A program made the position numbers and the translations under genes. A stretch of 60,057 nucleotides of DNA, counting the filler, from Dugesia japonica (lineage: Eukaryota): NCBI GenBank assembly GCA_001938525.1. It is 6 parts of 6 records of this genome, joined end to end, with 100 filler letters (N's around TTAATTAATTAA, not from the genome) between each part and the next. Parts side by side here need not be neighbours in the genome. Positions count along the whole stretch, not along the records: positions 10,541 to 21,196 come from MQRL01591091.1; 5 more parts are not named here. One strand, written 5' to 3'. Positions 5,411 through 36,021 of this stretch are shown piece by piece (the stretch's first letter is position 1; every line of letters starts with the position of its first letter). Under the pieces are notes generated by a model. That model was not told the origin of the DNA and did not search any database. It saw only the letters and a program-made list of their open reading frames with translations.

Positions 5411-6764
5411 ACTATTATAATTACTTTCGTAATTAAAATTATTTGAAATTTCTTTAGTTTCTATCTTTAGAGAAATGGTTTTTTAGAATTGGAAAGTTCG
5501 TTGTTTTTCTATGATAATTATTGAAAGTTATTGTATTTAATGTCAACATGTAATTTTCTTAAATAATAATTTTTATTATTCAACCATGATTTTTTCATAG
5601 ATCCCAATTATGATCCTATTTTATTGTGAAAATTTTCAAATTGTAAAAATAATTGAATGCAATCATGAGTATGAATTCTGTTTATCTGATATTATTAGTT
5701 TAATATTCCACAATGTTTGACAGACATTTTTAGATTTCTAAAATTATATTCATTTGCATTTTAAAATTTATTTAAATCTTACTAGTTTTGAAGCGATGTT
5801 TTTGTCAAATTTGTTTTATAAATAGTCAACAGTAGGTGGATAGGGGCACACGGGCACAATTTTTATAAATCACCCCTCTCCTCCGGGGAGGGGGGACTCG
5901 GAAACATATTACGCTTGAGCTGCGTTTTTTTAGACATGATTTTTGAGCTCGTTTTTTTTACAAAGATTTTATGGATAAAAAACATTTTGATCGAATCAGT
6001 TTTTTTGATCTAGAAAGTGTTTGTGTGTATTTTTTAATTTTTAATTTTTTGTGTTTTTGAGTTGTTAAAGTGGTTTTTAAAGAATAGGTCAAGTTGAGTT
6101 TGTGTGTGTGTAAAGGACTAGAAAAAACGAGGAGGAGGAGCTGGAGATCTTGGAGATAATTTTTTTGNTGTTTTGAAGATTTGTTTGTTGTTGGACAAAA
6201 ATTTGGTCTATATATTGTCTTAAAGACATATGAGTTCAGATGGATGGTTTTTGATACTAGGGTAGTGGGACACGGGCACAGTTGTACGAGTTATCGTGGG
6301 TAGTTTTTATGGAGGCTGTAGGTTTGTATGATGTTGATGGAATTTGTTGGTTGATGGTTTGTTGGAGAAGTAATTTGATGGAGAAGATGTTGGTTGTCAT
6401 ATGGGCTTTACTTTTTATTTTAAGGGCTACTATTTGATTTGTTGCTTTTGTAAGTAGTATAAGTGTGTCAAAATATTTTTTCGTGAGGTGCAGGTTGGTA
6501 TGTGTGGAAAGAGAATTAATTATCGGATATTATAAGATTTATTTGAAATTTTTCTATCGGTTGAAATATTTAATTTGGTTAAAAATTCTGTATTTTGCGT
6601 AAATTGATTAATTTAATGAAAGTAATGTTATTTTTGAGTATTTGATGTATTTTTGGTTATTTTTTCGGTATTTCTATCAGTGAAGGGTTGTTTTTTAATA
6701 TTTTTGAACGGAGAAAAGGGGAGTCTGGATATTTTTAAAAACTTTTTGGAAGCAAATTAAAATT

Positions 6765-6860
6765 TTTTTGGCGGAAATTCAAAAAAATAATTTTGGCGAG
6801 AAATTCAAAAAAAATAGTTTTGGCGGGAAATTCAAAAAAATTGTTTTGGTTGGAAATTAT
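6765..6860. promoter_or_regulatory. Tandem E2F + CHR-like (DREAM-type) sites
   Basis: Three to four copies of TTTTGGCGG(G)AAATTCAAA; the reverse complement is TTTGAA-TTTCCCGCCAAAA. Confidence 0.6.
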
Positions 6861-7414
6861 TCATTTCAATGGGGAATCTTAAACTTAATTTAATTTAATT
6901 AAATTTGAATTAAATTAATTTATTTATGTAAGAGATGTGGCAGTCTTAATATTTTGCATGCAGAGTCTATATATTTTGCATAAGATAGGATGAATTGATA
7001 TTTTTTAAGATATTTCTCAAGATATTACAAGATATTGGACAGTCTTGATATTTTTAAAGATATTATGACAAGATATCGCGCAGTTTTGATATTTTTTAAG
7101 ATATTATTACAAGATATTTAATTCTCTTTCAATGGGGAAATATTTTAATTATAATTAAATTAAATTTAATTTAATTAAATTTGAATTAAATTAATTTATT
7201 TATATAAGAAATGTGGCAGTCCTATATTTTGCATAAGATGGGCAGACGTGATATTTCTTAAGATATTTTTAAGATATTACAAGATATTGGACAGTTTTAC
7301 AACTGCAATTATTGCGAGAATAATTGTTGGACATAACCATTGATCGTTTTATAGAATTCATTTAATATAAAAGCTTTGATCAAAATTTAAGTATTATTTA
7401 TTGATATTGGATAA

Positions 7415-7451
7415 CAATTCGATATTTCGACCTTGTCTTCGTCAGGAATTG
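7415..7451 (-). ncRNA. Minimal type I hammerhead ribozyme (Penelope/retrozyme type), intact
   Basis: Minus strand reads CAAUUC-CUGACGA-A-GAC-AAG-GUC-GAAA-UA-UC-GAAUUG: 6-bp stem I, complete core, 3-bp stem II, palindromic AUAU stem III, AUC cleavage triplet. Confidence 0.82.
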
Positions 7452-8478
7452 ACTTTTTTTTGACAGTCTTGATATTTTTAAGATATTATTACAAGATATT
7501 TTTTGAGATAATATTACAAGATATCTTGCAGTCTTGATATTTTTATTCAGTATATGTGTGTTGTAGCTGTAATGCTTTTGAATGCATTTATGAAAATATA
7601 TCTATTAAAAAACTTTAAAGATGAGTGACTTTGTGATAATTACATAATAAAAATATAACTATTAAAAATAACCAAAGAGGGAGTCCTTGTGATATTTGCA
7701 TAATAAAATATAACTTTTATTAAAATATTCATATAAAAAATGTTCAAAGTGGGGAGTTTTTGTGTCATTTATATGAATAAATATTCAAATTAAAACTTTT
7801 CATTACAAAATGATAAAAAACAGAACTTTTTTCAAAACATATTATTATTGGTAATTTTATATAAAAAAAATATATCATTACTGATGCGCTGCAATTTTTA
7901 ATAAAAAAATATTATAGATGTGTTGACAATAATAAAACGTCTGCCCTATATCTTGTAATGATATCTTAAAAATGTCAAGAATACCCATAACATGCGTAAA
8001 TATATTGTAATAACATCTTCAAAAATATCAAGACTGCACGATATCTTGAATTAATATCTTAAAAAATATTAAAAGTGTCCATAACATGCATAAATATCTT
8101 GTAATAATATCTTAAAAATATCAAAACTGCCCGATATCTTGTAATAATATCTTTAAAAATATCAAGTCTGTCCAATATCTTGTAATATCTTAAAAAAATA
8201 TCACGACTGCCCATCTTATGCAAAATATAGGACTGCCACATCTCTTACATAAATAAATTAATTTAATTCAAATTAAATTAAATTAAATTAAATTTAATTA
8301 AATTAAATTAAATTTAATTATAATTAAAAGATTTACCCCATTGAAAGAGAATTAAATATCTTGTGATAATATCTTAAAAAATATCAAGACTGCCCATAAC
8401 ATGCATAAATATCTTGTAATAATATCTTAAAAAATATCAAAACTGCCCAATATCTTGTCATAATATCTTTAAAAATAT

Positions 8479-9900
8479 AGTAGGGGGATAGTGGCGCACT
8501 AGCCCACCTTGATTTTTTAGCCCACTTTCATATTTTGCTGTTATCGGAGGGGATCCCCCTCCCCCTGGGGGGGGGCTCAGAAACACATTACGCTGGGATA
8601 TGTTTTTTTAACTATGATTTTTGTGTTGGTTTTTTTCCAAGATTTTTGGGATCAAAAAATTTTTGATCGGATCGGTTTTTTTTATCCTGGTGGTTTGTGT
8701 GTGTGTACTTTTAAATTTAAAAATTTTTGTGTGTTTGGGTTGTTAAGGTGGTTTTTAAAAAGTAGGTCAAGTTGAGTTTGTGTTTGTGGTTGTGTGTGTG
8801 TAAGTGAAAGAGTGAAAAAAAGGAGGAGGAGAAGTTGGAAATCTTGGAAATAATTTTTTTTTAGTTTTTATGATTTGGTTGATGTTGGACAAAAATATTG
8901 TCTATAAATTGTCTAAAGGACTTATGAGATTGGATGGATGGTTTGTCCTACAACTATGGTGGCGCACTAGCCCACTCGTATGAGTTATTGTGGGTCGTTT
9001 TTAGGAAGGCTGTAGGTTTGAATGTGTTTGTTGGAATTTGTTGGTTAATAGTTTGTTGGAGAGGTATTGTAATGGAAAAGATTTTGTATATCGAATGTGC
9101 TTTGATTTTTTAATTATAGGGCTACTATTTGATTGGTTGATATTTGTAGGTAGTATAAAAGTTTTAAAAAATATTTTGACTGGGAAGGATGGATTTTCAT
9201 ATTTTTCGAACGAAGAAGTAGGGATTCTTGTTATTTTTTAGTGGGAAATTCAAAAAACATTTGGCGAATAATTTAAATTTTTTTTTGGCGGGAAATTTAA
9301 AAAAATCTTTTGGCGGTTAATTCAAAAAAAAATATTTTTGGTGGAAAATTCAAAAATAATATTTTTTAATTTAAAATTTTTCATTTAAACCAGGGAAATC
9401 TTTTTAATATAAATAAATTTAATTAAACTAATTTATTTATGCATGGTATAGGCAGTCTCTATATTTATGCATGTTATGGGCAGTCTCTATATTTATGCAC
9501 GGTATAGGCAGTCTCTATATTTATGCATGGTATGGGCAGTCTTTATATTTATGCATGTTATGGGCAGTTTCTATATTTATGCATGGTACGGACAGTCTCT
9601 GTATTTATGCATGTTATGAGCAGTCTCTATATTTATGCATGGTATGGGCAGTCTCTATATTTATGCATGGTATGGGCAGTCTCTATATTTATGCATGTTA
9701 TGGGCAGTTTCTATATTTATGCATGGTATGGACAGTCTCTATATTTATGCGTGTTATGAGCAGTCTCTATATTTATGCATGGTATGGGCTGTCTCTATAT
9801 TTATGCATGTTATGGCAGTCTTGATATTTTTTAAGATATTATTACAAGAAATTTATGCTATGGGGAGTCTATATATTTATGCATGGTATGGCTAATCTTT
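8479..9900 (+). mobile_element. Second, diverged copy of the same TIR arm, abutting or inserted into the first element
   Basis: Starts AGTAGGGGGATAG. Colinear with 5831-7000 (CATTACGCT, TTGATCGGATC, GGTCAAGTTGAGTTTGTGT, GTTGGACAAAA). E2F-like array at ~9240-9350. Confidence 0.65.
9436..9900. repeat. 28-bp minisatellite (ATTTATGCATG[G/T]TATGGGCAGTCTCTAT), about 14-16 units
   Basis: Directly visible tandem array; related to the GCAGTCTTGATAT subterminal repeats at 6940-7550 and 7930-8478. Confidence 0.92.
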
Positions 9901-10214: not shown

Positions 10215-10730
10215 AGCAAATTCCCAACTAAAAAGCCTATAAAAAATATTACCACCTAAAAAGCCTGAAAAATATTACCGTTTAAAAAGCCCAAAAAATT
10301 TTCCNNNNNNNNNNNNNNNNNNNNNNNNNNNNNNACTTTGCCGTCTAATAAGCTTGAAAAATTTTCCCAACTAAATACACAGGAAAATATGTAGCCACTT
10401 AATCCTATTACGTAAATTTTCCCGGAGATGAAATTAATCTNNNNNNNNNNNNNNNNNNNNNNNNNNNNNNNNNNNNNNNNNNNNTTAATTAATTAANNNN
10501 NNNNNNNNNNNNNNNNNNNNNNNNNNNNNNNNNNNNNNNNCTTTTTAGGGTCCTAATTGCACCGATTGGTTTTCTTCTTGATTTTTCTTGTTGGAATATT
10601 TTCTGACGTCCGGGACCAAAGTTATCCGTATAAAACAGATTTTTATCTAATTTTCGTTTATTTTTTGTTTAAAATTATTTAATTTTTTCTGTATTAATTA
10701 ATTATTTTTTATTATTGTTTTCTGGTTGCT
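10215..10730 (-). repeat. Inverted partial copy of the promoter/leader module (copy 1), spanning the linker
   Basis: Reverse complement of 10600-10700 (AAAATCTGTTTTATACGGATAACTTTGGTCCCGGACGTCAGAA) aligns with ~13950-13995 (AAAATATGTTTTATGCAAATAACTTTGCTTCGGAACATCACAGAA). Reverse complement of 10360-10440 aligns with ~14400-14500. Confidence 0.6.
10441..10540. other. Assembly linker (44N + TTAATTAATTAA + 44N)
   Basis: The same 100-bp spacer, with stops in all six frames, occurs five times. Confidence 0.97.
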
Positions 10731-10924
10731 TCCTTCAAAATTATTAATAATTTTAATTGTTGATCAATAATGGGTTCATTTCTTCTACACCTTCTTCATT
10801 GCATGTTCATTTCTTTTTATTATCACCTTTAGATACTTTATCTCTTTTCTTGATTTATTTTCTACTTTAGTGGGTGTTCCACCCCAACAATATAACCAGA
10901 ACAATAATGTAAATTTTGTAAATA

Positions 10925-12120
10925 ATGGAATTCGATTTGGACTTATCAATAAACGTAGCCAGAATTATAATGAATGACCCAGACATTGAATTATTCGGTA
11001 TGAGCAAAGGTCGAGAAGAAATCAAGTAAACCCCAGTAACAAAAAACATAATGCACTACCGTAACATATTTGCAGCACCAGAAAATTTCATAAGTAAAAG
11101 GGTGTGTTACAGCACAATGAAAGTGTTTGATGAGAAGTACAGGGATGAAAATGCAAGAAAGCAATCGTTATTCCAACTACCTAAATATTTATACGGTCTC
11201 ATTGAAGCCCTAGCCAAATCAGGATTTTACTACGTCGGTACCCAAGAACGACCAGATAGAGTAAAATGTATATATTTTCAAGGCATCCTACACAAATGGG
11301 GCATGAATGAGCAACTCAATAAAGCACACAGGAAATGGTTTCCTACCAGTCCATTCTTGCTAAATGTAAATGTAAACAACAAATCCCAACTAACTAAAGG
11401 AAGAAAATCCAAAACCGAGAAAACTACCATGGAACCAAAGCGGATATACTGTAAAATCATAAAGAACTTAGCAGAAGTTGCCCTGCTAGAAGATCTGGAA
11501 TGGAATATCGAAGAAAGAGAAAAAACGTTCAAAGAATCACCAAATCTGAAAGAAAAGCCCTGGATGGATTATACTTTGTCCAACAAACCAGAAATAAAAT
11601 TATCAAATGCACCAATTGCAAACGAGAAACTCTATTACTGCAGGGAATAGAGAAATTACCAAAGAAAATATTTCATCAACCAAATGGTTCAAGATTAACA
11701 CCAATTTACGAGGAAGAAATACAAACCACAGCATGTAGAATCGAGTGGAATATGTCGAGTAACAGAATAGAAATGGCAATTGAATTACAGACTAACCGAC
11801 TGTCTAATATCTTAAAGTTAAATAGGATGAATATCAAACAGTTAATAAACCAAACGGTCACAGAAAAAGGGTCTGAACTAGTCACACCATATGAGTTATA
11901 TCAAAGATCACTCAAATCAGTAAAACCACAGGTAAAATATGAGCGGGAATGGGTGTTGCTAGATCATGATTGCGTTATCTGCCTTTTAGAAACCATCGAG
12001 GTCGTATTTCTGCCATGTGGACATTTTAAAACATGCTATAATTGTGCTATAAACTTAAATGAATGCCCTATGTGTCGAAAGTTAATTGAACGAAGAACAC
12101 TAGGAATAAAATTTCAATAA
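10925..12120 (+). pseudogene. Intronless IAP-like gene, BIR-(degenerate BIR)-RING, with one early stop and one frameshift
   Basis: BIR1: RKQSL..LP.....LAKSGFYYVG....DRVKCIYF..ILHKW.......AHRKWFPTSPF (two Cys lost). BIR2 remnant: REKTF..LDGLYFV..IKCTNC..H. Intact C3HC4 RING: CVICLLETIEVVFLPCGHFKTCYNCAINLNECPMCR. AATAAA at the stop. Confidence 0.88.
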
Positions 12121-12217
12121 TAAATAAAGTTAGATATGTAAATCATGTATGATTATATATACTTATATTTGTCAACATATTATTATAATAAAATAATTAC
12201 TCTCTCTGATTTTAGAA

Positions 12218-13371
12218 ATGAACGTGGAAAACCTAATAAACCATCTCCGCAATGAGATTCAATTCTTACAAATACAAACTCAAACCCTCACAACCGTACC
12301 AGATGTCCTAAAATGGAAATTGGAATCCAAAATCGATGCCTTTTCCAATTTACAATTGCAAAAATATATTAGCGAATTGGAGAGCCAAATAGAAAAAGCA
12401 CGTCACGAATTNGAAATAAAAAAGCGATCGTGCAAAACCCACCAAAAATACATAAAAAGCAATATCGACGCCAATAGAGCGAAAATAAATGCTATCAAAC
12501 AAGCCCAAAGCTGGAAGAGTAAATATGAGGAAGTCGAACATAAAATAAAGTTACTCGAGAATCAACTAATAGTCGAACAAGAAAATAACCACAGTTTTAG
12601 AATGGAACTGTTTAACACGCAGTTTGAAAAAAATTATCTGGTTACCGAAAATCAATTCCTAACCAGTCTAGCCAATCGAGAAAGGGTACAAGCTGATATC
12701 CATAAATTGTCCTTGGAATTCGAGAGCATAATGCAAGATTACCAGCAAAAGAATGAATTTTTACAGCAATACATCGAAGCCCTAGAGCAGGAAATCATTG
12801 AAATGCGAAACCTCTACCATGGAAAAGAAGATAAGATGAAACAAAAACAACAACAGTTAGTCGAGCAATTTGCCACCATTAAGGAACTACAGCAAGCGCA
12901 CACAGCTCGCAACCAATCTTTCATCCATTAGTACTACCGATCCTACCACACCTAAGGAATCTAATCATTCTTAATCCACCCAAATCAACACTAAACCCTG
13001 ACGCTCCAGAATGGCAACCAATAATCTCCAGTCTACTAAGACAATACACACCGTTAATAATCCAGGAACCCACGTCAGCTCCAGTTAAATCTAGAATACC
13101 AGAATCGATAAACAAAATAATTGATCAGGTCCCGCACATAATTTCAGCACCTACTCAACCCAGAAAGTCAGTACCTTTAGTGATACAAGAAACCCAAAGT
13201 AAACAACTCGGTTCTGCAACACCCAGCCGGATACACAGTAGAACCTCAGTGTGGAATCATAACCAATTTAAGAGAAACCTGTCCCAGTCAATCGTAACGG
13301 AAATATTACGAAAATTTGGTTCCGAAATACGAGCTAGTGACCTGGACGGTCTAGTAGAGGAAGTCGATTAG
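12218..13371 (+). pseudogene. Coiled-coil protein with Pro-rich tail, PAM2 motif and C-terminal EEVD (one frameshift between ~12883 and 12928)
   Basis: TTTTAG-AA-ATG start; 237 aa of heptad-rich sequence. The alternative frame is open 12883-13371, contains KSTLNPDAPEWQP and ends GLVEEVD*. AATAAA at 13392. Confidence 0.75.
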
Positions 13372-13599
13372 AACAAGTTGAGCGCGATGTAAATAAACTG
13401 TAATTAATCCATCGGACATCAATGAAGGGAATGAACTGTAAACTTTAATGTATATTGTATTTGAATGTATAACGTAGAAATTTTTATGTATGTGTTATGA
13501 GATAGCATGTAATGACCTTAAAATTCACCTTGCTCTGTCAGTTTTATTGGGGATAGAGGAGTTTCTGCAACGGGGACGAACTGTGACAAATTCCGGGAC

Positions 13600-14535
13600 G
13601 GAATTTAAACAAGTCGGAGAGCGATTTGTTGGGGTGGAACACCAGGACAAAGAGAACTAAGACCACGGGGGTCATCAAATACAAGTTATGGGAAAGGAAG
13701 TAAATTACGCAAAATGATTAAACGAAAAAGAAAAACCGGCACAACCATCGGATAGAATGATAAACCCAAAGTTTAAATAAACCATATAAAGGAAGCCGAT
13801 ATAATAAATTCGAACAATCCAATCGAAGTCATCCAATTAAGAAAATTATCGAGTTATTATTTGGATGAATGAGAAGATTAGTTAACAAACGATTTAATTA
13901 TCAAGAAAAAAATTAATTAATTTAATTTAAAAATAAAGAAAAATGATGTCAAAATATGTTTTATGCAAATAACTTTGCTTCGGAACATCACAGAACGACG
14001 GTGCAAGAAAATTCCAGAAGAGAAAAACAAGGGTCATTAAGAATTATCTGGAGAAAAAACTTACCATCATCCGGAAAGGTACTGTAGGGTTTCCAAGATC
14101 GAACCAATCAGATACCTAAAAATAAAAATAAAACAAAGAAGGAACCATCACATGGCCCTCTAAAAATACCTACCAATCAGAATTCCAAAACTCTACAAAA
14201 AATTCTAGAATAACAGCACCAACACCAATAAAATTCTAGAATTCTAAAACAAAAATACCTACCAATGAGAACGGTGCTGGGTTGTATCAAAAAATCATAT
14301 AAAAAGACCCCTGAACTTAACAGAAAAACACACAAAAATTTGAATATTGTAACTGCTACAGCAGCATTATATTATAAAGAAAAATTTTCATAGGAAACGT
14401 TAGTGAATTCTCATCGCAAATATAATTCCGGGAGAATATTCAATAATTTACGAAGCAGTCCAGAAAAGGAAATCGTAGCAAAATTTTAGTTGGAAAAGTC
14501 CCTTGCAGAAAATTCTATTAATTTTAATAGTAAGT
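13600..14535 (+). promoter_or_regulatory. Promoter/leader module (copy 2): CCAAT cluster, TATA box, candidate leader exon ending at a GTAAGT donor
   Basis: CCAAT at 14104, 14173, 14225 and 14262; TATAAAA at 14298; GTAAGT at 14530; TTGTTGGGGTGGAACACC at 13626 shared with 20238. Confidence 0.62.
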
Positions 14536-14736
14536 AATATGTTGGATGTTTTTATTTGTATTTAAATGTAATCTTAAATTAAATTATTAATGTCGAAATA
14601 ATATATGTTGGATATTTATGTTTTTTTATTTTTTGTTATTATCGTGATAAATTACCTCAAAAGAAAGTAATTAATTTATAAGTAGACATTATAGATCAGA
14701 TCCATGTTATGTCTCTTTTGATGTAGCAGAAACCAG

Positions 14737-14883
14737 ATGGGTGTTCATAAAGACGCCTGTCACAGCAAGAAAATGAATGATCAAAAAATACCCATGAAAA
14801 CGTACCAGTTCGCGAGTGCATATTCATTCATCGCTATAAATCAATTTCACCACTCTGTCATTAGGCGGCAAGTATTAAACTAA
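14737..14883 (+). CDS. 48-aa mini-ORF of the cassette, unknown function
   Basis: Pyrimidine tract + TAG/CAG immediately before the ATG; MGVHKDACHSKKMNDQKIPMKTYQF...RRQVLN*. Confidence 0.3.
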   Translation: MGVHKDACHSKKMNDQKIPMKTYQFASAYSFIAINQFHHSVIRRQVLN

Positions 14884-15149
14884 TTACATACAGACTCAGC
14901 AAAAAGAGAGCCCACTAACTAATTAGTTAGATGGTAAAATATCTCGGTTTCTCGTCGTGCCACTCACTGAAAACGCATCACATTGTTAAACACACTAAGA
15001 TGGGCGTGTAGGTAAACCAAGGTCGAATTCGATGTCGTTCCTAAGCGACTGTAAAATGCCACAATTTAAAAGATTATAATTAGCAATAAAATCATTGTAT
15101 CTGAATGAACAATTTTTAAATAACTTCTCATTATAGGAGTCTATTGGTT

Positions 15150-15321
15150 GCTTCATTGATATTATTATTATTATTATCACTATTGTTAGTATTATTATTA
15201 CTATTATCATTAACATCACGACTATTACTATTATTATTATTAGTATTTTATGGTTATTATCTTTGTGACGATCGTTATTATTATTAGTATTATTAATATA
15301 ATCATTAATATTATTAATATT

Positions 15322-15382
<61 letters not shown>

Positions 15383-15700
15383 NNNNNNNNNNNNNNNNNN
15401 NNNNNNNNNNNNNNNNNNNNNNNNNNNNNNNNNNNNNNNNNNNNNNNNNNNNNNTTATTATCGTTAATATCTTTATTATTATTCGCACCATTATATTCAC
15501 AATTATTATGATCATTTTAATTATCTGTCCAATTGCTAATGACCATATTATCGATATTATTATTAAAATACGTATCACTATTATTGGTAGTAGTAATCGA
15601 TGAGTTATTACGTTAAATATCAATGTCCAGCCGATTAATAATAGTCCGAAGTCATGCGGATCATCATATATATACTTTTTGTGAATCGGCATGTATTAAT
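15150..15700. repeat. (ATT)n microsatellite with degenerate flanks
   Basis: Pure ATT core at ~15325-15382 running into a gap; degenerate triplets on both sides. Confidence 0.92.
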
Positions 15701-16027
15701 AAAAGTAATAGTAATTCGGTATTGTTATCCTCCCTCTCAATTTTGGAGTGTTATCCACATTAAAATTATAGCCTGAATTTACTGTTACGGTTACATTAAC
15801 ATTCTGGTGGCGTGTAGCATCAGTAACGTTAACTGTGGTATGTTTTATCAGGATTCTGCACGTGGGTCAATTACCCATGAACAGCGATGAATTTACATAG
15901 GCCATTTCAGAGAGCAAGGGTAGAGACTCCCCACTAGTATTACCTGAAAGTAATGCCGATCCGGTTTTTCTTAAGGAACTAAATCATTAGAGATGTTGTT
16001 AAAGTATGCTCTTCTTACATTTAGCTT

Positions 16028-16210
16028 ATGCCCGTCAAATTGTGTCGGATCCTGCGAAAGATAGAACGACAGAGACGAGCTGTTCGTAGAAAACAGTTGA
16101 TAGCTCACATAATAACCCATGAAAAAATAGAGCATCCGGATGAAACGGACCTGTGCTGTTTTGCCGAGAAGTTCCCCATGGACGGGAAGGTAGATTTAGA
16201 CGAGGAGTAA
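16028..16210 (+). CDS. 60-aa mini-protein, family A (paralogue of 22891-23076)
   Basis: CATTTAG-CTT-ATG start; gapless 24/60 identity with the ORF at 22891 (RKQLIxH, PDExDLxCFxExFP, VDxD). Confidence 0.75.
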   Translation: MPVKLCRILRKIERQRRAVRRKQLIAHIITHEKIEHPDETDLCCFAEKFPMDGKVDLDEE

Positions 16211-16351
16211 TTACTTTCCTTAGTGTAACGGGTATCTGTGTGTTTAAATATACCAGGAAATGAAATTTTGTAGTTTTTATTTTTATAATTCGTCTATTAT
16301 GTCTTAATGTGGTGTAATCTAAACTTTACTAGCCCTATTCTGTTCTTAGGT

Positions 16352-16708
16352 ATGGACTCTATATGGATACGTGTCATCGATAGGTGAACCCGTCGACTAA
16401 CTCTGCGTCGATATCACAACCCGCATAATCAGGATGCCGGTATCTTAGTTTACGGGTCAAATTTACCACCGGTCGAATCAATCGTTGCCCGCATTAATGA
16501 TTTTGGAGAACGGCAGCGATACCAGGCGTGGACGGGCCTGGATCGCACTTTAGCAACTTCATTTTCATACCAACCTACCACTCTCGCCCCAGCTCCTGCG
16601 ATACAAGCGTTCATCGCTAATCTTCTCTGGAGAGTCCGAGAGCCGAATGGTGTAGCTGATGCGGAAAACACTGCCCTCAACGCCGACAATAATAATAATC
16701 CTTCTTAA
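16352..16708 (+). pseudogene. 118-codon mini-gene with one internal TGA (not in the ORF track)
   Basis: TTCTTAG-GT-ATG; MDSIWIRVIDR*TRRLTLRRYHNPHNQDAGILVYGSNLPPVESIVARINDFGERQRYQAW...NNNNPS*; GC-richer than flanks; AATAAA at 16730. Confidence 0.62.
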
Positions 16709-17022
16709 ACTGTTTGGTTATTTGTTAGAAATAAATAAGTGTTTCATTTGTGACTATTTCTAAATTTTCTTGTAAATCGGATTTCTAGTGATCGTGATTT
16801 AATTTTGACTTTAGTATTTTTTTGCGGTATTATTTGTAACGGGATTGGTCTTATCGATTTTATTTAATAATATTGCTAGTCAAGACCACCCAACTTTTCT
16901 AATAATAGTTAACATTGAGTAAAGTGTAACACCTTAAACATGTTTATATTTCAGTGCATTCGACTTTAAATAGGTTCCAGGTCCCGACTAAAAAATGACG
17001 AGAAGATAATGATGACAAGGAG

Positions 17023-17313
17023 ATGACTTGGGATCTTTATAAACTAGCTAAGAGGCGATGGGAAGCAGAGATCGCCGCGGCCGACGCTAAAGTAAAACGC
17101 TACAAGCGAAAATGTTTAACTTTTAAAGCCNAAATGGACGCCACCCAGAAACAAGAGAGGGTGTGGAAGTCCCAGGTTGAAACATTTACCAAGATGGTCC
17201 ATTCTTATCAGGAGCGGGAGAATAATTTGATGGAAAATATATTGAAGCTGAGAGCAGCGACACCTTTGGCCCCTCTCTTGATAGATAAGGGCACTCAGAC
17301 CAACCGCTCCTGA
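17023..17313 (+). CDS. 96-aa coiled-coil mini-protein ending in an LC8-binding motif (DKGTQT)
   Basis: ORF track; acceptor TTTCAG at 16954; AATAAA at 17342. Confidence 0.65.
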   Translation: MTWDLYKLAKRRWEAEIAAADAKVKRYKRKCLTFKAXMDATQKQERVWKSQVETFTKMVHSYQERENNLMENILKLRAATPLAPLLIDKGTQTNRS

Positions 17314-17416
17314 GTGTTATGTTTACTAATTATTTGAGTTTAATAAACTATTTAATTGTCTTTTATAATTATGAACTTGAGTTTTCGTCAGTTTACTTGT
17401 ATTTTGTTTTCATTCA

Positions 17417-17800
17417 GTGCCACGAATTAACTTTCCCAATAGTATCCGGAGATGCCATAGAATTATGCGCCGCTTACTAGTCGAACGACACCTAAAACGT
17501 AAGACAGATAGGGCACTTATGAAACATTTAGACCAACGGGATCAGCTGATTAAAAAATTAGATTTAATTATAAAAAAGCAAAATGACCTGGCGGTTCAAA
17601 CTTAAGCTTTGGAAACCGAAACCAAACAGCTGTTGCTACGGAAAATCGAGTTCATAAAGCAATACATTGCTGATCTGTCTCGTCGAATAGGCAACCCATC
17701 TGTAACCCAAGAGGATGACGATGAAGACATAGCAGCTTTCAACTTTGTGGTAACAGAGCCCAACCAGTGGCTAGATCCAGAGGCACTGGATTTACTTTAA
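17417..17800 (+). pseudogene. ~127-codon mini-gene (basic / coiled-coil / acidic tail) with one internal TAA
   Basis: ORFs 17417-17605 and 17609-17800 are in frame; acceptor TTCATTCAG at the start; AATAAA at 17812. Confidence 0.62.
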
Positions 17801-18486
17801 TATTTTCAAAAAATAAATTTATGAAATCAAATTTGTAACTCCTTTCTTTCGATAGTAACGATAGGGAAACCATTGAACCCAAATATAAAGGTTTATCGGT
17901 GCGTACCTTCCATTGAGAGTAAGGTCAACCACCATGAACTGAAAGCCTACCTCGGGGACGGTAGGATAAATTCTTGAAAGGGTTCCCCTGAGGGCTGTTT
18001 TTTCCCCAGTCACCTTTTCTTGTCACTCGACTCAGGTGGGACCCCAACAGTATTATACATTGGAGTGTTAACTTGAGTTTCTTCAGGTAATGATTATTTC
18101 ATTAAGTGAATTATCACATTTAATAAGCAACTTGGAAATGTGTCGAGAAAGAATCATGCTTAATAATATGGACTCACAACTAAGGTTTAATAATGATAAA
18201 AATAACTGATTCTAAAATCTCAAAAATGAATTAACGCGACTTAAATGTAATAAAGTAGCGAAATAAGAGTCAATATTTGAGAGTCCCTGAGTACAATAGA
18301 GTATGAAGCACTCACAGCAAAGTCTCAACTCCTTGCTCGTATAGATTAAAAATCATAAAATTCATAAACTTGGATTTTCATAATGTACAAAAGTAATGAC
18401 TGATTTATTATAAAAATACTATTAATTAAGTGTGAACATTTTATTAATAATTAAATAAATAACTTCAATATTGTAAAAATTTAGAA

Positions 18487-18930
18487 ATGGTTAAAAATAT
18501 CTCGTTAACAGAAACTGTGAAATCATTGAACGGGTGGAACTTCACTGCACCGCCACCATATAATAGACCAGTACTCTACAATTCCTGGAGTGATGTGATG
18601 ATATAGACCCTTGGTGGATGAGGCAAGATAAGTTGCAATTACAAAATCTAAAGACCAGGAACAAGAAATCGCAGAAATGAAAATTTAGTACAAAACCAAA
18701 AAAAGCAGTAAAAACGAAATCAAGCGTTAGCAGATTTGTTTAAGAGTTCTATTAAAGTTTCATAGCATCTTATTAGGCCACCACAACGTACAGAAAAAGG
18801 AACCTTCATTAATCGTGTAGTACAAGAATAAGTAAAGGTTGCGGAGCGCATAGAGGCTCGCATTGAGCAGGTTATGCCGACCTTGATACCATATTTAATA
18901 GAAGATTGCAAAATAATTGTCGAAATCTAG
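18487..18930 (+). pseudogene. Degraded mini-gene containing PPPY
   Basis: TTTAG-AA-ATG; MVKNISLTETVKSLNGWNFTAPPPYNRPVLYNSW... then frameshifts; AATAAA at 18946. Confidence 0.5.
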
Positions 18931-19124
18931 TTTTATTCAAGTGTAAATAAAATTATTATAGTTTAAATGCGTTTTGTGTTAACGTACGATAATTTTAAAG
19001 TTACGAACTAGTAAATAACTATCATAATTATTAATGAAAGTTGACAAATTCTATTTTCTTTTATTATTATAACAATATGTTTTTAAGCTTTCCACATAAA
19101 CATTGTTTAATTTACAAAATTTCA

Positions 19125-19472
19125 ATGAAAATCACCAAGCTATCTCAAGAGAAGTTGTTAACAGAACAATGAAACAGTACGATTGAGTTGAAAAAGATGC
19201 GCAAAGAGATTAATGAATTAAGAAATTCGGTCAGTATCGCTAGATAGAAGATATCAATTCTGTGAGAAAGATTAAGCGTGAGTCGCCAGAAGGAACTCAC
19301 TCTAATCACAAACAACAGGATGCTCGTTGAGATAATCAAACCGTACGCCTACAAGGAGGCCAAACATGAGAACATTATGAAAGGAATATAATGGAAAAAC
19401 GAATAAAGATTCAGACTGTGAGAATACCAAGGAGACTATATTTGGCTCTCAATATATCAAATGTGTAAATAA
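19125..19472 (+). pseudogene. Degraded 115-codon coiled-coil mini-gene
   Basis: One continuous frame MKITKLSQEKLLTEQ*NSTIELKKMRKEINELRNSV... with several stops explicable as single C>T changes; AATAAA overlaps the stop. Confidence 0.45.
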
Positions 19473-20229
19473 ATTTAAAGTCATAACGACCGTATTTTCT
19501 TAGTTTTTAAAATAAATAAATTAATAAATATGAGCAGGAACACCAGTTAACTTTCTTCACAAACGGGATACAGTATAGTCCTGCATAGACCACGGTTTAG
19601 ACTATCGACTCACAAAGTGTCGAAAAGTTTCTNCTGGCTTCGAGGTATCTACTCCTAGAAGAGATAAATCACTGCAAAAAATAAACCAGGCAAAGAAAAA
19701 GAAAACATCAAAATCTTGAAGCCCTACAAAACTTTTGTTTGATAATTGAATTAATGAATTATTGAATATTTTTGTTGGAAGATGTCGGGGTAGAACTTAT
19801 TTACAGATAAAAAGTAAAATTAAACAGAAAAATTAAACAAAGTAGACAAAAGATTGAAAAGAAGAAAGAAAGAAACAAATACATCATTAAAATAGAAGGA
19901 AACGCCACAAGAACAGAGGATAATGAGAATTTATAAGCAAATGAATTATTTAGCGGAAAATTTATTAGGTATAAAAAATAAATAAATTATTATCATATGG
20001 AAATTTACATTCAGAATAAGTTACAAATTAATTAAGAGTAAAGGAACCCGAAATTGAAGAATATAATTTGTTACAAATTAATTATGAGAAAAATGATTTA
20101 ATAACTTAAGAAATCATCCATATACAACAGATTACCAAGCGGAAAATAATTACATTAATAACAAAAATTATTAAACATCAAATCAAATATTTGCCGAATC
20201 AGTCAGAACTAAAATATATAATTATTTTC

Positions 20230-21196
20230 AAACAGAATTGTTGGGGTGAAACACCGGATTAATGCAAAGAGAATTGCGTAAGTAAGCACGAAATTCGAAA
20301 AATCTACATGAGAAAGGAAAATGAAGAAATCAGACCCAAGAAGGGCATAATCTAGTTGGAGAGAAGAATGACGAAAGCCAAAATGAGACTAGAAGACTTA
20401 AACTCGTGAAAAAACTAGAACTACAACAGGAGATAACGACGAAATAAAAAAAACCAACAAAGTAAAGAAGCGGTACTCCAAACAACGAAAATAATAAACG
20501 ATGGCCAAGGAACTGATTCATTAATTGAAAAGGAAATAATGAAAAGGAAAATCAAGATTGGTAACCAGAACCAACGAAATAACCAAAAATCACAGCACGA
20601 AACAATTCAGAAGTAAATAAACCGAAGAAGAAAATGTAATAGAAGCTGTGACAGGACGACAAAAAATCTAATGATTAACCATCAATTCATTAGGCAAAAT
20701 CAAGAAAATCACACCGAATCATACTAGAAGAAAGANNNNNNNNNNNNNNNNNNNNNNNNNNNNNNNNNNNNNNNNNNNNNNNNNNNNNNNNNNNNNNNNN
20801 NNNNNNNNNNNNNNNNNNNNNNNNNNNNNNNNNNNNNNNNNNNNNNNNNNNNNNNNNNNNNNNNNNNNNNNNNNNNNNNNNNNNNNNNNNNNNTTTTAAA
20901 TAAAAAATTAAATTTTCTACAAAAAACTAAGAAAATTAGGACTTCTAGTGGTGCCAAAATTATCAATTTAGAAATTTCTGGTCGAGAAAAATCTGGAGAA
21001 CTCAAAAATCAAACTTAGAAAACCATGGCAAGGAAGAGAAAAAAGTTATAAGGGTTTGAAGGTTGACCAATAGTTTCGAAGTCCAAAAATAACCGCCAAT
21101 GAAAAGAAAGCATGTGACCGTTTGGCCAATAAAAGTGTCGAAAATTTATATTCACCAATGGAATAAACGGGGGTGTAGAAAAAACCGGTATAAATA
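20230..21196 (+). promoter_or_regulatory. Promoter module (copy 3): four CCAAT boxes at 29-30 bp spacing plus TATA
   Basis: CCAAT at 21067, 21096, 21126 and 21155; TATAAATA at 21189; TTGTTGGGGTGAAACACC at 20238 (17/18 identical to 13626). Confidence 0.7.
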
Positions 21197-21296
21197 NNNN
21201 NNNNNNNNNNNNNNNNNNNNNNNNNNNNNNNNNNNNNNNNTTAATTAATTAANNNNNNNNNNNNNNNNNNNNNNNNNNNNNNNNNNNNNNNNNNNN
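21197..21296. other. Assembly linker
   Basis: 44N-TTAATTAATTAA-44N. Confidence 0.97.
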
Positions 21297-21708
21297 CTTG
21301 ATTTATTCATTATGATATTTAAACATAAATAAAAAAGAAAAAATTAAGTAAAAATCACAAATTATCATGTTAAGTTATTATAAAATCCATTGAACTTAAA
21401 TATTGTCCACCGATAATTATCGTCTACTGAGAAATAAGTAGTTGTCTTTGAAATTAGGCATGCCAANNNNNNNNNNNNNNNNNNNNNNNNNNNNNNNNNN
21501 NNNNNNNNNNNNNNNNNNNNNNNNNNNNNNNNNNNNNNNNNNNNNNNNNNNNNNNNNNNNNNNNNNNNNNNNNNNNNNNNNNNNNNNNNNNNNNNNNNNN
21601 NNNNNNNNNNNNNNNNNNNNNNNNNNNNNNNNNNNNNNNNNNNNNNNNNNNNNNNNNNNNNNNNNNNNNNNNNNNNNNNNNNNNNNNNNNNNNNNNNNNN
21701 NNNNNNNN

Positions 21709-22700
21709 GTTATTATTGTTATTCAAACTATGATAATTAATCTCCGTGAATAATAGTATTTCTTCATAATTAATGTAATTGTTGCCATCATTATATTTAA
21801 TTAGTATCATTACTATAATTATATTTATTCCCATTATTATTGCGTTTACTGCTAATAATATATTCCAGTCAATACTTCATTTATGACTATTATTAGTTTC
21901 AGATAAATGTTACCCTTAATTCTACAATCTTTTCATTCTAGGCGATCCATACACCCGATGATTATTATTATTACAAAGGTGAATATTAGAGTCATGATTA
22001 TATTTATGTCTACTAGTGATACCAGTTGAATAGTAATTCCCTACTATTAGTGCCAAGATAGTTATTATTGAAACGATCTTGATATTATGTTCAGTCTATA
22101 ATTAATATTATTTTGAGTATTGGGAATTTAGAATCGATATTATCGACATCATTAACATAATTAATATGATTATAACCAGTAATATTATTATTATTCTTCT
22201 CATTTCTGCGGGTAACCTCATTCTATTATTATTATTTTTACTTATTATTAGTAGGATTCTTATTATTGTTATCACGCCTATTATTATTACTACGTTATTA
22301 TGATTATTCCTATCATGATAATCATTGCAATTGTTATTGATACTGTTTTGTTAGCATTATTATTATTATTACTATTATTATTTTTACTACCAATAGTAAT
22401 AACATTATTATTATTAATCTCGTTACTGTTATAGTATGATTATCATTATTATAATTATGTTTATTATTAATTTCAAGATTACTACCACGGNNNNNNNNNN
22501 NNNNNNNGCTAGTATTCTTATGAATTCAATATTTAATTTTTGTATTATCACCATCAATATTACTATTATTATTGCACATATTATCATATTTATTACAATT
22601 ATTATTATATGTATGAGCATTATGATTATCCCCTATTTAGTTTCTTTCCTTATTAGTATTCGTATTGTTGCTATTAGGACTCCCGTTATTCACTAATGTC
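21709..22700. repeat. Long degenerate (ATT)n tract
   Basis: ATT/TTA/TAT triplet periodicity with many substitutions. Confidence 0.88.
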
Positions 22701-22890
22701 GTGATCTCTATTATGGACGTCGTCTTCACATTTATCTACTCTTAAAAGTACTTAAAATATAAATATTATCAATAACGTACGAAGAGTGTTAAACATAAAA
22801 TAATCGATATCGCTCCCGTTAAGTATGTAACATAAACTACCGGACAATTTTTCGAGTTTAATGGGTTCTGATAATTTTTTCTTTAGGAAA

Positions 22891-23076
22891 ATGTCGAGGA
22901 GTTTAAAAGACACATTAAATTTCATTCGGCCAGAACAGCAACGAACCAGCCGGAAACAGCTAATCGGACATCTCCTCTTTCTGAGTATTATCCCTTCTCC
23001 CGATGAGTTGGATTTACAGTGTTTTGTCGAGATGTTTCCCTTGTCTACCTATGTGGATATCGATCGGAAACTCTAA
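22891..23076 (+). CDS. 61-aa mini-protein, family A (paralogue of 16028-16210)
   Basis: TTTTTCTTTAG-GAAA-ATG start; MSRSLKDTLNFIRPEQQRTSRKQLIGH...PDELDLQCFVEMFP...; AATAAA at 23105. Confidence 0.75.
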   Translation: MSRSLKDTLNFIRPEQQRTSRKQLIGHLLFLSIIPSPDELDLQCFVEMFPLSTYVDIDRKL

Positions 23077-23309
23077 CTTATTCAACCAAATTTTAATTGC
23101 AGTAAATAAATATTTTATGAAATGGCGTTCATTAATTGATAATTGATTTTTGATGTGCTAGGATGTTTAGAGTGCTGGGGCAGGGTAGGGAGGGAGAATT
23201 TGAATTGACCAATCAAAAAAGTGAAGTCATGCTGACCTATCTACCGTATATTTGTTTTAATTAAGTCTAGTTAGCGGGAATTAAAAATTTTTTTTGGCGG
23301 GAAATTTAA

Positions 23310-26010
23310 AAATTCAAAACTACTCAAATAGTTCCTAACAAGCTGTTCAATCAAAGAGCAAAACACACTTTCCACAAGATCAAAGGTGAGCTCACTGAGT
23401 CTAAATACTTACTTCACAGCAGATATATGAAAGCCCTTTGAAAGTATTTCATGAAATTCTTGGATCTACAATTCCAGTCTCAACACCAACTAAAGAGAAT
23501 ATTATCAATTATTTCACTCAGATTCTGCCAGAAAACCTAAATCTAGATAAGTTTAAATTTCTTGATATTTCACTCTATCAACGAAATAAAATTAAATAAA
23601 ATCAAAACTGCTTTCAAAAGCACTTAGAAATCTTCATCCGGGATGAATAGAGTCACTTACTCCGATTGGCTTAAAATTGATCCCAATAACATATTTCTAC
23701 AGGCTCTCTTTAGCAGAATTCTACAGATTAAATATATACTTGATCAATAGAAAACGTTTTATACTAATCTCATCTTGAAACTGGTTAAAGAAAAGGAATC
23801 TCATCAAGTCTCATCTTGAAAATTTATAGCAATTTTGAATACCTCATACCGAATTTTTACAATTGTTATAAAAAACAGAATTCTCAGTTGGATTTCAGTA
23901 GGAAACTCACTCTCACCAACTCTAAATGTGACTTATTTATCAGATGGATGCTCACAACACAATGCTACAATACAATTAATTAGAGAAAAAGCTGAGCGCG
24001 AGAAATGGAATCTTAACCTTACTTGACTTGATCTGGCAGACACCTTTGATAGTACCCCTCAGAAAATACTCTGATTCATGCTTAAACATATTGGATTACA
24101 TCCTGAGACCGTTACTCTTTTTAAGGAGTTATACAAAGACATTTATTGTTCTTACAAATGTCTAGACATAAAAACAAGCGATATCAAAATCATTAAAGGA
24201 GTCAAACAAGGATGTTCTATGTCTATGACGCTTTTTAGCCTGATCATTGATTTCATTATTATAGTAACCTCAAAAGCATTTCCTCTAACTCTTAATGGGT
24301 ACAATGTTACCATTTTAGTTTATTCAGACGATCTTGAACTTATCTCCAATAATTACAATCAGACGAATCATATGATAAACAAAATTGTAAGCTTCACTGA
24401 TACAAGCCGTCTAAAGTTCATACCAAGCAAATGTGGATTCTTCCAACTTAAAACCCAAATAAAATATCAAAATTTACAATAAAGTGATTCAAAAAATTAA
24501 TGATGAAATTCTATACAATTACTTGGGAGTATCATTAGGAGAAGCTAAGAAAAACAACCTTAAAGACATAATCAACAATGCAATAGAAGACTTTGGAAAA
24601 ATCACAGAAAGCAGTCTTCATCCGTCATTAAAAGTCCAAACATAAAAATGTTTATTCATTCAAGATTAATCTATGCTATGAGGAACCGAGACATTTTCTA
24701 TATGAAACTGAACAACCCTCATCACAAAAAGTTTGATGGCAGTACAAGACAATCAGATTATCAAAAGAATTTTTAAGAACATCAATCAAGCTCCAAACAG
24801 CAGTGACAATAATGCCTTTCCTTTCGTTCTATCTAAACGTGGAGGATTAGATTTGTTGCCTTCAATCGATGAGTACTATATTCAAAGTATAGTAAATGCC
24901 TTCCGGATCCTCAATTCTCAAAAGAATTGTTTCAAAGTGTTAACAGCTAGGGAACTTGAGCACAGATTCAGAAACAATAGCACATATTCGATCCAAAAGA
25001 CCTTGATGCATAACAACACTATTCCATCTTAAGATAAAACTAATATTACTGCATCTTTGTGTACCAGAGTAAGGACGTTAATAAAAAGACTTTACGAAAC
25101 TCATAAACTCAAACTGCTCTTCTTTATTGAAGAAAATGAAATAGAGCTGAAAATCACTTGGCTGGATGATTAGAACTTTTTTCTCAATATACTGATCAAA
25201 AACAGCTCAAAATCTTAGTTGTGCAATGTCCTTCATACTAAAATTGAAATGACATATTTCCAAAAATGGAAAAGCCTTTCCACACAAGGTCTTCTAACAA
25301 CATGTTTAGACTCATCAGACTATGCTCAAAATTTTATGAAAAACTTAAACCTTTCTGAAAACGATTACCCATTCATTATTCGAGTAAGAAACAATCTTTT
25401 GAGAACTAACTACAATCCTAACAAACTGAAAAGCAACATACCAATTCATTGCAAAGAATCTGGTACTGAAGCTATAAACTTAAATACACATATTTAACCA
25501 CTGCTCAGCGAGGAGGAATAAACAGTACAATAAACACAATCATGTTAAGGAAAAGATTGTAGCTCAACTTAGAAAATGGAATTTTGATGTAGAAATTGAT
25601 TCATGTTCACAAAGCTTTGCAAAAGCTAGAGAAGATAATAGGAAAAAATATAAGAGCATCAAATTCGAAATTAGCTCAAAGTTCTACAAAAAGGTTACAC
25701 TTAATAATCTTGTCATTGGAACATTAAACTCAAGGAACGCCTTCAATCAAAGGGCTCTCAAACATATTGGTCTAACCTCAAATGAAATAAAGAAAATCTC
25801 GTAAATATCAATCAAAAGAGTAATCAAAGTGAGCTATCATATTTACTTAAATCATATAATCAATGAGGCTAAATTTCCTTCAATTCAAAACTAAATTCTG
25901 TTTAGACTCAAATGTCCAAGAAATTTATCAAATTGAGTTCTTTCTAAATAACCAAATATAATAAAATAAAAATCTATGATCTCGGATTTATTCGAATCAT
26001 TCAAGACTTA
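23310..26010 (+). mobile_element. Degraded RLE-type non-LTR retrotransposon (NeSL/R5/R4-like), 5'-truncated
   Basis: RT motifs DLADTFDSTP, GVKQGCSMSMTLF, VYSDDL, KFIPSKC, YNYLGV; RGGLDL thumb; C-terminal HCK..E...HI..C..HN zinc remnant; KY and LVIGTL of an RLE domain. Confidence 0.85.
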
Positions 26011-27279: not shown

Positions 27280-27971
27280 TGGTCATGCTTTATTATTATA
27301 TTGTCAAGAAAACGGGAGCAAAACGTACTGATTCACTTGTAGAAATTTATGGTGAATACGCTTTTCCAGCTGCGACATGCAATTTTTTTTGCCGAATTAG
27401 AAATGGCAAATACCAAGGACAAAGAGAATGGAAACCATTAAAACATATTGAAGATAAAATATTTACAATGTTATTGGATAAAGATCTATTTCAAAGACAA
27501 TCTGAATTAGTTACTACAATAAATGCAACCCAATGTTTTTCGTCGCGTCTAAATAGTATGGAATGATTCGAAAATAATGGAATTGAATCACACTTTGATT
27601 AACGTTATAGATAAAGTGAAATGTGAAAAACAATTTATAATGTTTAGAGACCAAAAAGAAACGTTTTTTGCATTGAATTGTTACGGAATATAAAAAAAGA
27701 TATTTAAAGAAAATCCAAAACACAAAGCAACTTAAGTGAAGCCAGGTTAACCCGGTATATCAACGCCAAACCCAAATATCCATGATTCAAAAGTTAAGCT
27801 TTGTATTTGGTGGAAACAGAAAAAGGTCAAATATTATAAACTGCTGAGACCATCGGAGACCATAACTAGTGAATATTATAAATTGCAATTAATTCGACTT
27901 GAAGTGAGCTCTGGCTGACAAAAATACTAGAATGAGAGATTAGACATGCAAGGATAATTTTGCAATATGAT
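27280..27971 (+). mobile_element. Degraded mariner, truncated by a gypsy LTR
   Basis: LVEIYGEYA, FLH*IVT, STPNPNIHDSKVKLCIWW, YKLLRPSETITSEYYKLQL, RHARIILQYD. Confidence 0.82.
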
Positions 27972-28194
27972 TGTTAGAAGTCTGTTTCATTAGCATAATA
28001 TTTATTAAATTACAATCTAAAAAGGAGGAATAAATAAATAAGTAATTATGATTTGAGCAATCAACATACCTCAATTGGTAAACAAACATTGACATGTTAT
28101 GAAACATACAAAATATTTGAACTCATTGTCAAATATTAATTACGCAACATACAGTTTTAATAATGATTTATAATAAATATAAAATATACTAACA
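27972..28194 (-). repeat. 3' LTR (223 bp) of a Ty3/gypsy element with adjacent polypurine tract
   Basis: TGTTAG...CTAACA termini; TCCATCTCTCTTT follows immediately (AAAGAGAGATGGA on the minus strand). Confidence 0.8.
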
Positions 28195-30412: not shown

Positions 30413-30765
30413 TCAATCCAATTTCATAAGTCCTTTAGACAATATATAGACCAAATTTTTGTCTAACAACAAACAAATCTTAAAAACTCCAAAAAAAATT
30501 ATTTCCAAGATCTCCAGTTCACACTCGAGTCCAAATTCACTCATTCCACATACAAACTCAACTTGACCTACTTTTTAAAAACCCCCTTAACAACCCAAAC
30601 ACACAAATTTTAAAATTTTAAAATATACACACACAACCACCAAGATCAAAAAAATATGATCCGATCAATAAAATTTTTATCACAAAAATCTTAGAAAAAA
30701 ATCTAACCAAAATATAGTAACACAATTGTAATGTGTTTCCGAGCACCGGGGGGATCCCCTCCAAA
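30413..30765 (-). repeat. Third fragment of the AGTAG-terminal TIR family (inverted)
   Basis: Reverse complement of ~8545-8935 and ~5875-6240 (CAAACTCAACTTGACCTA, TTCCAAGATCTCCAG, GGGGGATCCCCTCC). Confidence 0.8.
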
Positions 30766-35498: not shown

Positions 35499-35955
35499 CT
35501 AATTCCAAATTCGAAGGAAACTGTCCCAAGATCCGGTGCACACTGCCATTCCATCTTCCGAAACTCCGAGACAGCTGACTCGGTTATCGTGACCAGCTAA
35601 AACTCCTGAAATAATAATATTGATTTTAAGATATTTTCCCTTCCAAAAATCGTGGTATTTATTTACCGGCTCTATCTTGTTTCAGTGTGTCCCATACGTT
35701 ACAGTTGAAATCGTCATAACCACCGAGTAATAATCGGCCACTTTTGCTGAAAGCAACACTTGTAATACCACAAATAATGTTGTCGTGAGAAAACATTCCT
35801 ATTTCTTGATCAGCTCTTATATCAAACAATCGACAGGTAGCATCGTCAGAACCTGTTGCGAATGCCTGACCATTGGGGAAAAACGTTATTGCGTTTATAT
35901 CCGATTCATGACCCGGAAACGTTTGCTTACACTGACCATCTCGTAAGTCCCAAAG
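35499..35955 (-). CDS. GNB: Heterotrimeric G-protein beta subunit, last two exons (35955-35667 and 35605-35499); missed by the ORF track
   Basis: [51 protein letters not shown]...[14 protein letters not shown]|[35 protein letters not shown]; 61-bp GT-AG intron. Confidence 0.97.
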
Positions 35956-36021
35956 CTTTACAATAAAAAAATTTTAATTTTTCATTTATACTAGTCGATT
36001 TTTGTAATAGTATGATTTTTC

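Follow-up and report, generated by a model that had tools for sequence, protein, structure and literature searches.

A probable Burro-like long terminal repeat of Dugesia japonica with four conserved mini-genes predicted to share one leader

Introduction

A plus-strand repeat unit of 4423 bp in the planarian Dugesia japonica, at positions 13627-18049 of a stretch of 60,057 nucleotides (the window; six joined parts of assembly GCA_001938525.1, with positions 10,541 to 21,196 coming from MQRL01591091.1), is probably a Burro-like long terminal repeat (LTR) holding four conserved mini-genes, A-D, which its sequence predicts to be alternative last exons of one leader. The mini-genes are real and conserved, and the copy in the window is decayed, with one premature stop each in B, C, and D.

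An earlier note on this DNA had described mini-genes over 12205-19480 bracketed by a 3' splice acceptor and AATAAA, and had proposed that those downstream of 14530 could be expressed either from a common leader with alternative acceptors and poly(A) sites or as a spliced-leader (SL) trans-spliced operon. The motifs do lie where that note had placed them (all eight AGs, all eight AATAAA, the GTAAGT donor with its first base at 14530, and the TATA box at 14298), but the span cannot be taken as one unit. Three sets of sites are merged in it: 12215, 12119, and 13392 precede the donor; 18484, 18946, and 19468 lie past the end of the high-copy repeat; and those at 22886 and 23105 come from a second unit related to the first. 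It combines parts of at least two insertions, and the actual unit is smaller. As judged from the sequence, the common-leader proposal appears to hold inside the repeat (16024-17812, perhaps also 14726-15085), but not for the whole span. There, it is strengthened by the ATG-free leader ending in A, the in-frame AG|TG at two of the genes, and the conservation that sets in right behind the acceptors.

Conserved Mini-Genes Within the Repeat

All of the mini-genes are on the plus strand. Mini-gene A (16024-16210) has its acceptor at 16024 and an intact open reading frame (ORF) of 60 amino acids at 16028-16210, with no AATAAA after it. Mini-gene B (16349-16735) has its acceptor at 16349, an ORF of 118 codons at 16352-16708 that contains a premature stop at 16385, and AATAAA at 16730. 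In mini-gene C (16954-17347), the acceptor at 16954 is followed by an in-frame TG, a coiled-coil-like ORF running to 17313 with a premature stop at 16996, and AATAAA at 17342, and mini-gene D (17417-17817) likewise has an acceptor at 17417 with an in-frame TG, an ORF to 17800 with a premature stop at 17603, and AATAAA at 17812. A possible decayed fifth mini-gene, Z (14726-15090), is the weakest member, with an ATG at 14737, 48 open codons, and AATAAA at 15085; by eye, the AGs at 14726 and 14729 seem better acceptors than that at 14736, and no homolog of Z was found.

The contigs of one run (X1) were treated as genomic DNA because they cover the non-coding flank evenly, and their summed depth, which is no copy number, amounts to thousands over the mini-genes. 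It peaks on the ORFs and falls in the spacers (4061 at the peak of gene A vs. 926; 3955 vs. 685; 5966 vs. 1629), and the GC content of the gene islands is 42-49%, that of the spacers 22-29%. At the premature stops of B (16385), C (16996), and D (17603), 94-100% of the contig depth reads another letter, and in B all of it does, so that these stops are private to this copy.

Gene A is 50% identical over 46 amino acids to its counterpart A' in the second unit (E 2e-14), and a distant homolog of B (P0001), with its start at the same Met, is 35% identical to B over 96 amino acids (pairwise E 2e-17). The other of the two matches to B in the profile-free full search, a crustacean repeat protein (P0002), was short and of low identity and was rejected as a homolog. 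Word-based protein searches with B, C, and the linker of the neighboring IAP-like gene gave no matches; Pfam gave none above cut-off for Z, A-D, or P0001; an atlas search returned only weak RHS-repeat matches for B (recognition 1826, 120-129 shared features) and none for A; and A had no match among PDB sequences. The predicted fold of A is of low confidence (pLDDT 64.5, pTM 0.40).

Predicted Promoter, Leader, and Donor

A promoter-like region on the plus strand at 14104-14304 contains four CCAAT motifs (14104, 14173, 14225, and 14262) followed by TATAAA at 14298. The same layout is found in the second unit, with CCAAT at 21067, 21096, 21126, and 21155 and TATAAA at 21189, and in both units the last CCAAT lies 34-36 nt upstream of the TATA box. 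Behind it, the predicted common leader exon (14325-14529, plus strand, 205 nt, its start placed from the TATA box) contains no ATG and ends in A; freedom from ATG over this length was seen in 3.8% of shuffles and in 90 of 2007 windows of equal size (p ~0.04). The leader is followed directly by the 5' splice donor GTAAGT at 14530-14535, the sole exact GTAAGT on the plus strand in 10893-19600, with weaker GTAAG sites at 17499 and 17919. At the level of sequence, one promoter, one ATG-free leader, and one strong donor precede all of the acceptors of Z and A-D.

Placement of Acceptors and Poly(A) Signals

Acceptors were scored with a fixed rule (a YAG with no further AG in the preceding 14 nt and at least four pyrimidines out of six), which was written after the sites had been seen, making its p values generous; GC content, homology, and family depth nevertheless mark the gene islands independently of it. 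Among the pyrimidine-AG acceptors of the earlier note, those at 12215, 16024, 16349, 16954, 17417, and 22886 pass, but 14736 and 18484 fail and were rejected as acceptors. The ATG said usually to follow within 0-4 nt of the AG is present at six of the eight, but 16954 and 17417 have an in-frame TG and no ATG. An acceptor that passes the rule stands before all four of genes A-D, and elsewhere in the window before 38 of 1554 ATGs; 50 such acceptors occur on the plus strand in 10893-19600. Shuffling of the 80 nt before the starts gave p values of 0.043 (A), 0.051 (B), 0.007 (C), and 0.010 (D), or 1.7e-7 jointly.

AATAAA at or near the stop (-1 to +30 nt) was confirmed for six of the eight ORFs tested, but not after gene A (16210) or after the 48-codon ORF at 14737 (stop 14883); the ends of two islands in the flank, E and F, were excluded, their frames being too decayed to place a stop. 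The corresponding shuffle p values are 3.6e-4 for three of the four genes A-D and 6e-6 for six of the eight ORFs. The positional regularity that the earlier note had regarded as its signal exceeds chance, both for the acceptors of A-D and for AATAAA. In addition, a stop triplet fused to a poly(A) signal, GTAAATAAA, is seen at the gene ends at 13389, 18943, 19465, and 23102, with six plus-strand copies in the whole window.

Predicted Completion of Start Codons by Splicing

In C and D, the acceptor AG stands directly before an in-frame TG with no ATG at the acceptor, an in-frame stop precedes the TG by 8 codons (C) and 12 codons (D), and the first in-frame genomic ATG after that stop is codon 24 in C and codon 17 in D. 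Contig depth is 6634 at 16963 vs. 446 in the spacer at 16876 for C, and 8125 at 17452 vs. 157 in the spacer at 17396-17405 for D. Because the depth of the family is already high just behind the acceptors, conservation starts there and not at the later ATGs. An in-frame acceptor|TG within the first 30 codons was found in one of 175 control open stretches. Since the leader ends in A and the exons of C and D begin with TG, joining them would create both start codons. A start codon completed at a splice junction is known from the env gene of the springer subclade, according to excerpts of its description (10.1101/2023.08.03.551782).

Proposed Mechanism

RNA polymerase II would start roughly 25-30 nt behind the TATA box at 14298, and in each molecule the ATG-free leader of 205 nt would then be joined, via the donor at 14530, to a single acceptor, namely 16024, 16349, 16954, or 17417, with the acceptors at 14726/14729 perhaps also being joined to it. 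The message would be cleaved at the next AATAAA, A presumably using the site of B or a variant signal; the last acceptor of a transcript is usually coupled with its poly(A) site. A and B would be translated from their own ATG just after the acceptor, and the start codon of C and D would consist of the last A of the leader and the TG of the exon, so that full-length C and D proteins should be obtainable from spliced RNA only. More speculatively, the leader of the 5' LTR in a full element might also be joined to internal genes that have an acceptor of their own, for example the coiled-coil gene preceding the repeat.

The genomic RNA could have its start at 14298, which would give an R-U5 (repeated and unique 5' regions) of 3.7 kb. 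Alternatively, it could start behind a second TATAAA at 17884, in which case the whole cassette would fall within U3 (the unique 3' region) and have its own promoter, resembling sag of mouse mammary tumor virus (MMTV). The second TATAAA opens a GC-rich terminal segment of extreme depth (17884-18049, plus strand), the candidate R-U5. This segment is 50-100 times deeper than the mini-genes, the donor-like GTAAG at 17919 is likewise preceded by an A, and the segment may be common to many families with different cargo; its folding is no better than that of shuffles (z -0.07).

Identity of the Repeat

The unit at 13627-18049 is a high-copy dispersed repeat with a sharp edge, the right edge being set by depth: summed contig depth reaches 211,827 in the bin at 17918-18051, with which the repeat ends, and is 8-46 from 18186 onward. 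Its termini are TG...CA inverted repeats of 9 bp, TGTTGGGGT at 13627 and the reverse complement ending at 18049, and its 5' edge recurs at 20239 (plus strand) and 10889 (minus strand), giving three related 5' edges in the window. On the basis of the TG...CA ends, the internal promoter, and the adjoining BIR/RING and coiled-coil genes, the unit probably represents a 3' or solo LTR from a giant Ty3/gypsy-type, Burro-like retrotransposon, and it is from these features that we infer membership of Burro. Rfam and tRNA scans gave no match, no related loci were found in viral, metagenome, or genome collections, and scans of metagenome and viral contigs for DNA patterns gave 0 matches; two candidate loci (L001 and L002, 58 and 50% GC) were rejected as chance, with matches in stop-broken frames and no other mini-gene match.

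Between Z and A lies an (ATT)n-rich tract with an assembly gap (15130-15640, no strand assigned), which recurs at the same position in the second unit. On the minus strand of both units, the ATT tracts (14900-16000 and 21700-22880) can be read as broken frames rich in Asn, which may be decayed microsatellite or an antisense gene. An antisense Asn-rich gene over the tract was unsupported as a candidate, as the units gave no protein match under low-complexity masking.

Evidence Against the Leader and LTR Interpretation

Several observations weigh against the proposal of an LTR with one shared leader. The donor region of the second unit lies in an assembly gap, and the final A of the leader is known from one copy only. 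No AATAAA stands behind A, so the pairing of an acceptor with a downstream poly(A) signal applies to three of the four genes (B, C, and D). A target-site duplication was not found, the left and right flanks of 13627-18049 being different; none of 4-5 bp would be expected if the repeat is a 3' LTR still attached to its internal region. By eye, there is no clear primer-binding site near the repeat, and the purine tract is weak, with a short GA-rich stretch just before 13627. Neither linked gag/pol nor a second LTR copy occurs within the window.

None of the runs on record as RNA contained the stretch, which is evidence in neither direction. RNA evidence came from three raw RNA runs with the same species label, of each of which 6-25% was read, the donor lying outside the stretch compared. 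Matching reads numbered 6, 127, and 19 across the three runs; three of these 152 reached a likeness of at least 95%, and nearly all derive from diverged relatives. They lie in the cores of A and C (in two runs for C), with a trace of D, and mostly in the terminal segment, a distribution that also counts against the proposal in that the reads of this segment are equally consistent with passive read-through. Among the 152 reads there is no junction, start, or end, and none reaches an acceptor. Relatives of A and C are present at a low level in oligo-dT RNA; in animals with piwi knocked down, the RNA of transposons is reported to increase (PMC8532177). The reads show low-level transcription of relatives and speak neither for nor against the splice model.

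Alternative Explanations

Of the alternatives, the one that survives best, and is still unlikely, is that the acceptors are real and fed by some other upstream exon, from another and possibly coding donor in the full element, so that A-D would be alternative C-terminal parts or would have another leader. The 5' LTR and the internal region are outside the window, use of the donor at 14530 was not observed in the RNA reads, and weaker GTAAG sites occur at 17499 and 17919. However, A, B, and A' have their own ATG at offsets of 3, 2, and 4 nt, and no single coding exon would be in frame with all of them; the B homolog P0001 begins at the same Met; and the sole exact GTAAGT follows an ATG-free exon that ends in the very base that C and D need.

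That the same splicing cassette is carried by something other than an LTR, either a non-autonomous DNA element with TGT...ACA ends or some other virus-like insert, is quite unlikely. This explanation would account for the failure to find a target-site duplication, a primer-binding site, or linked pol, and for there being no second repeat copy flanking an internal region in the window. A DNA transposon, however, should leave a duplication too, the inverted ends are just 9 bp, only some 17 nt are common to the three 5' edges, and the adjoining BIR and coiled-coil genes recall the BIR and Smc motifs that excerpts of PMC6431247 report for Burro.

It is improbable that the mini-genes are transcribed separately, or are captured fragments, and that their acceptor-like sites are relics or simply result from the T-richness of the spacers. 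The spacers are 44-53% T and rule-passing acceptors are frequent on this strand (50 in 10893-19600), but shuffles of the spacers that keep their composition still give 1.7e-7, and C and D have no start codon of their own where conservation begins.

The other proposal of the earlier note, an SL trans-spliced operon, is very improbable: there is an acceptor at each gene start, and the distances from AATAAA to the next acceptor (75 nt for C-D and 224 nt for B-C, not A-B) fit the spacing within flatworm operons, at most 300 bp, given in excerpts of PMC12582326, but flatworm SLs are reported there, for parasitic species, to end in AUG, and such an AUG would be out of frame at six of the eight acceptors (coiled-coil gene, B, C, D, E, and A'), the frame being kept at 16024 and 14736 only, so that trans-splicing would deprive C and D of their conserved N-termini, with a strong cis donor lying upstream.

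Relation to Known Systems

The single elements of the leader-and-LTR proposal, an ORF in U3, a splice-made ATG, and giant planarian LTR elements with accessory ORFs, have precedents. Excerpts of a review (PMC6431247) describe extra domains of Burro, with BIR and Smc motifs listed, that occur with the 4,873-amino-acid polyprotein or as an upstream accessory ORF. The unit examined here resembles Burro/GYPSM1, the giant Ty3/gypsy elements of planarians, in its multi-kb terminal repeat, adjoining BIR and coiled-coil ORFs, high copy number, accessory ORFs, and decayed copies; it differs in that those excerpts mention neither LTR-internal genes nor a splicing scheme and in that no gag/pol is linked to the unit in the window. 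In MMTV, the sag/naf region in U3 is, as far as the excerpts go, also an LTR-internal ORF with its own upstream LTR promoter (PMC9412291), but it is one reading region, whereas here four or five genes each have an acceptor and mostly their own poly(A) signal. The springer-subclade env shares the completion of a start codon by a splice junction, but according to the same excerpts (10.1101/2023.08.03.551782) AU is supplied to one internal gene, whereas here a single A is predicted for two LTR genes and two others have their own ATG.

The mini-gene cassette would also work in a way similar to that of the adenovirus major late unit, in which one promoter and one leader serve alternative acceptors, with separate poly(A) sites coupled to them. 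The likeness is limited to this leader/acceptor/poly(A) logic; here, unlike in adenovirus, no adenoviral gene or DNA-virus hallmark was seen, the leader is a single exon, the genes are tiny, and the carrier is a chromosomal repeat.

Among the literature matches listed, there was no description of genes or splicing within Burro LTRs, although the primary Burro paper, supplements, and Repbase lie outside this coverage and a prior description is possible; in the same literature, an LTR with four or five genes on one leader was not found. LTRs are usually regarded as control regions that encode no protein, apart from a few that hold a single ORF. A repeat with genes for four conserved, uncharacterized proteins, at hundreds of times the depth of the flank, would represent hidden protein-coding capacity in a heavily studied regeneration model. 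Such LTR genes would escape ATG-based gene calling and repeat masking, and solo LTRs would preserve them after the element itself was lost. The genomic RNA must either pass several acceptor/poly(A) pairs or begin only at the second TATA, close to the end of the repeat. The splice prediction is exact to the base. A wider view, which we put forward tentatively as falling just short of probable, is that the LTR has turned into a self-contained multi-gene unit, in which one promoter and leader would yield four to five small proteins through the coupled choice of acceptor and poly(A) site and a splice-made start gate, and that intact solo LTRs would be accessory-protein cassettes dispersed genome-wide.

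Neighboring Genes and Other Features of the Window

Upstream of the repeat, on the plus strand, lie a broken BIR + RING (IAP-like) gene at 10925-12124 with AATAAA at 12119 (Pfam BIR E 8e-10, RING E 5e-14, both above cut-off) and a broken coiled-coil-like gene at 12215-13397 with its acceptor at 12215, ATG at 12218, and AATAAA at 13392, for which Pfam gave weak matches below cut-off and none to Smc. The association of BIR and RING with the repeat is positional only. From their position and, by eye, similar decay, the two genes may be 3' internal genes of the same insertion, or else part of an older element.

In the low-copy flank outside the repeat, the decayed gene-like islands E and F (18484-19473, plus strand) have the same style of ends. 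Depth there is 8-46, one contig is about 99% alike over 1400 bp, each frame has 6-15 stops, and decay is far more advanced in both islands. The flank at 18050-20238, with E, F, and perhaps a third island near 19530-19770, probably represents an older relative whose genes are built in the same style.

The second related unit (20239-23140, plus strand) is truncated and gapped. It has the same 5' edge and keeps the order of the first, with four CCAAT motifs, TATA, the ATT tract, and gene A' (acceptor 22886, ORF 22891-23076, AATAAA 23105, plus strand). The 5' edge of a third related unit (10540-10889, minus strand) has a 17-nt edge identical to that of the first and is 71% identical over 132 nt to 13894-14024 (E 2e-12).

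Elsewhere in the window, a decayed non-LTR retrotransposon lies at 23300-25900 (RVT_1 E 1.6e-12), and a decayed gypsy-type pol fragment lies at 28280-30130 on the minus strand (RNase H E 8e-21), with no link to the unit at 13627 shown. A host gene for elongation factor 1-gamma at 32645-34291 has short introns and is affected by an assembly duplication, and by eye 35500-35960 on the minus strand resembles the final exon of a gene for a G-protein beta subunit. Mariner-like transposase remnants occur at 250-1150 (by eye) and 27285-27990 (weak HTH_48 match), and repeats of one family, palindromic and tandem (28-nt) and having long inverted arms, occupy 6000-9900 and 30413-30740.

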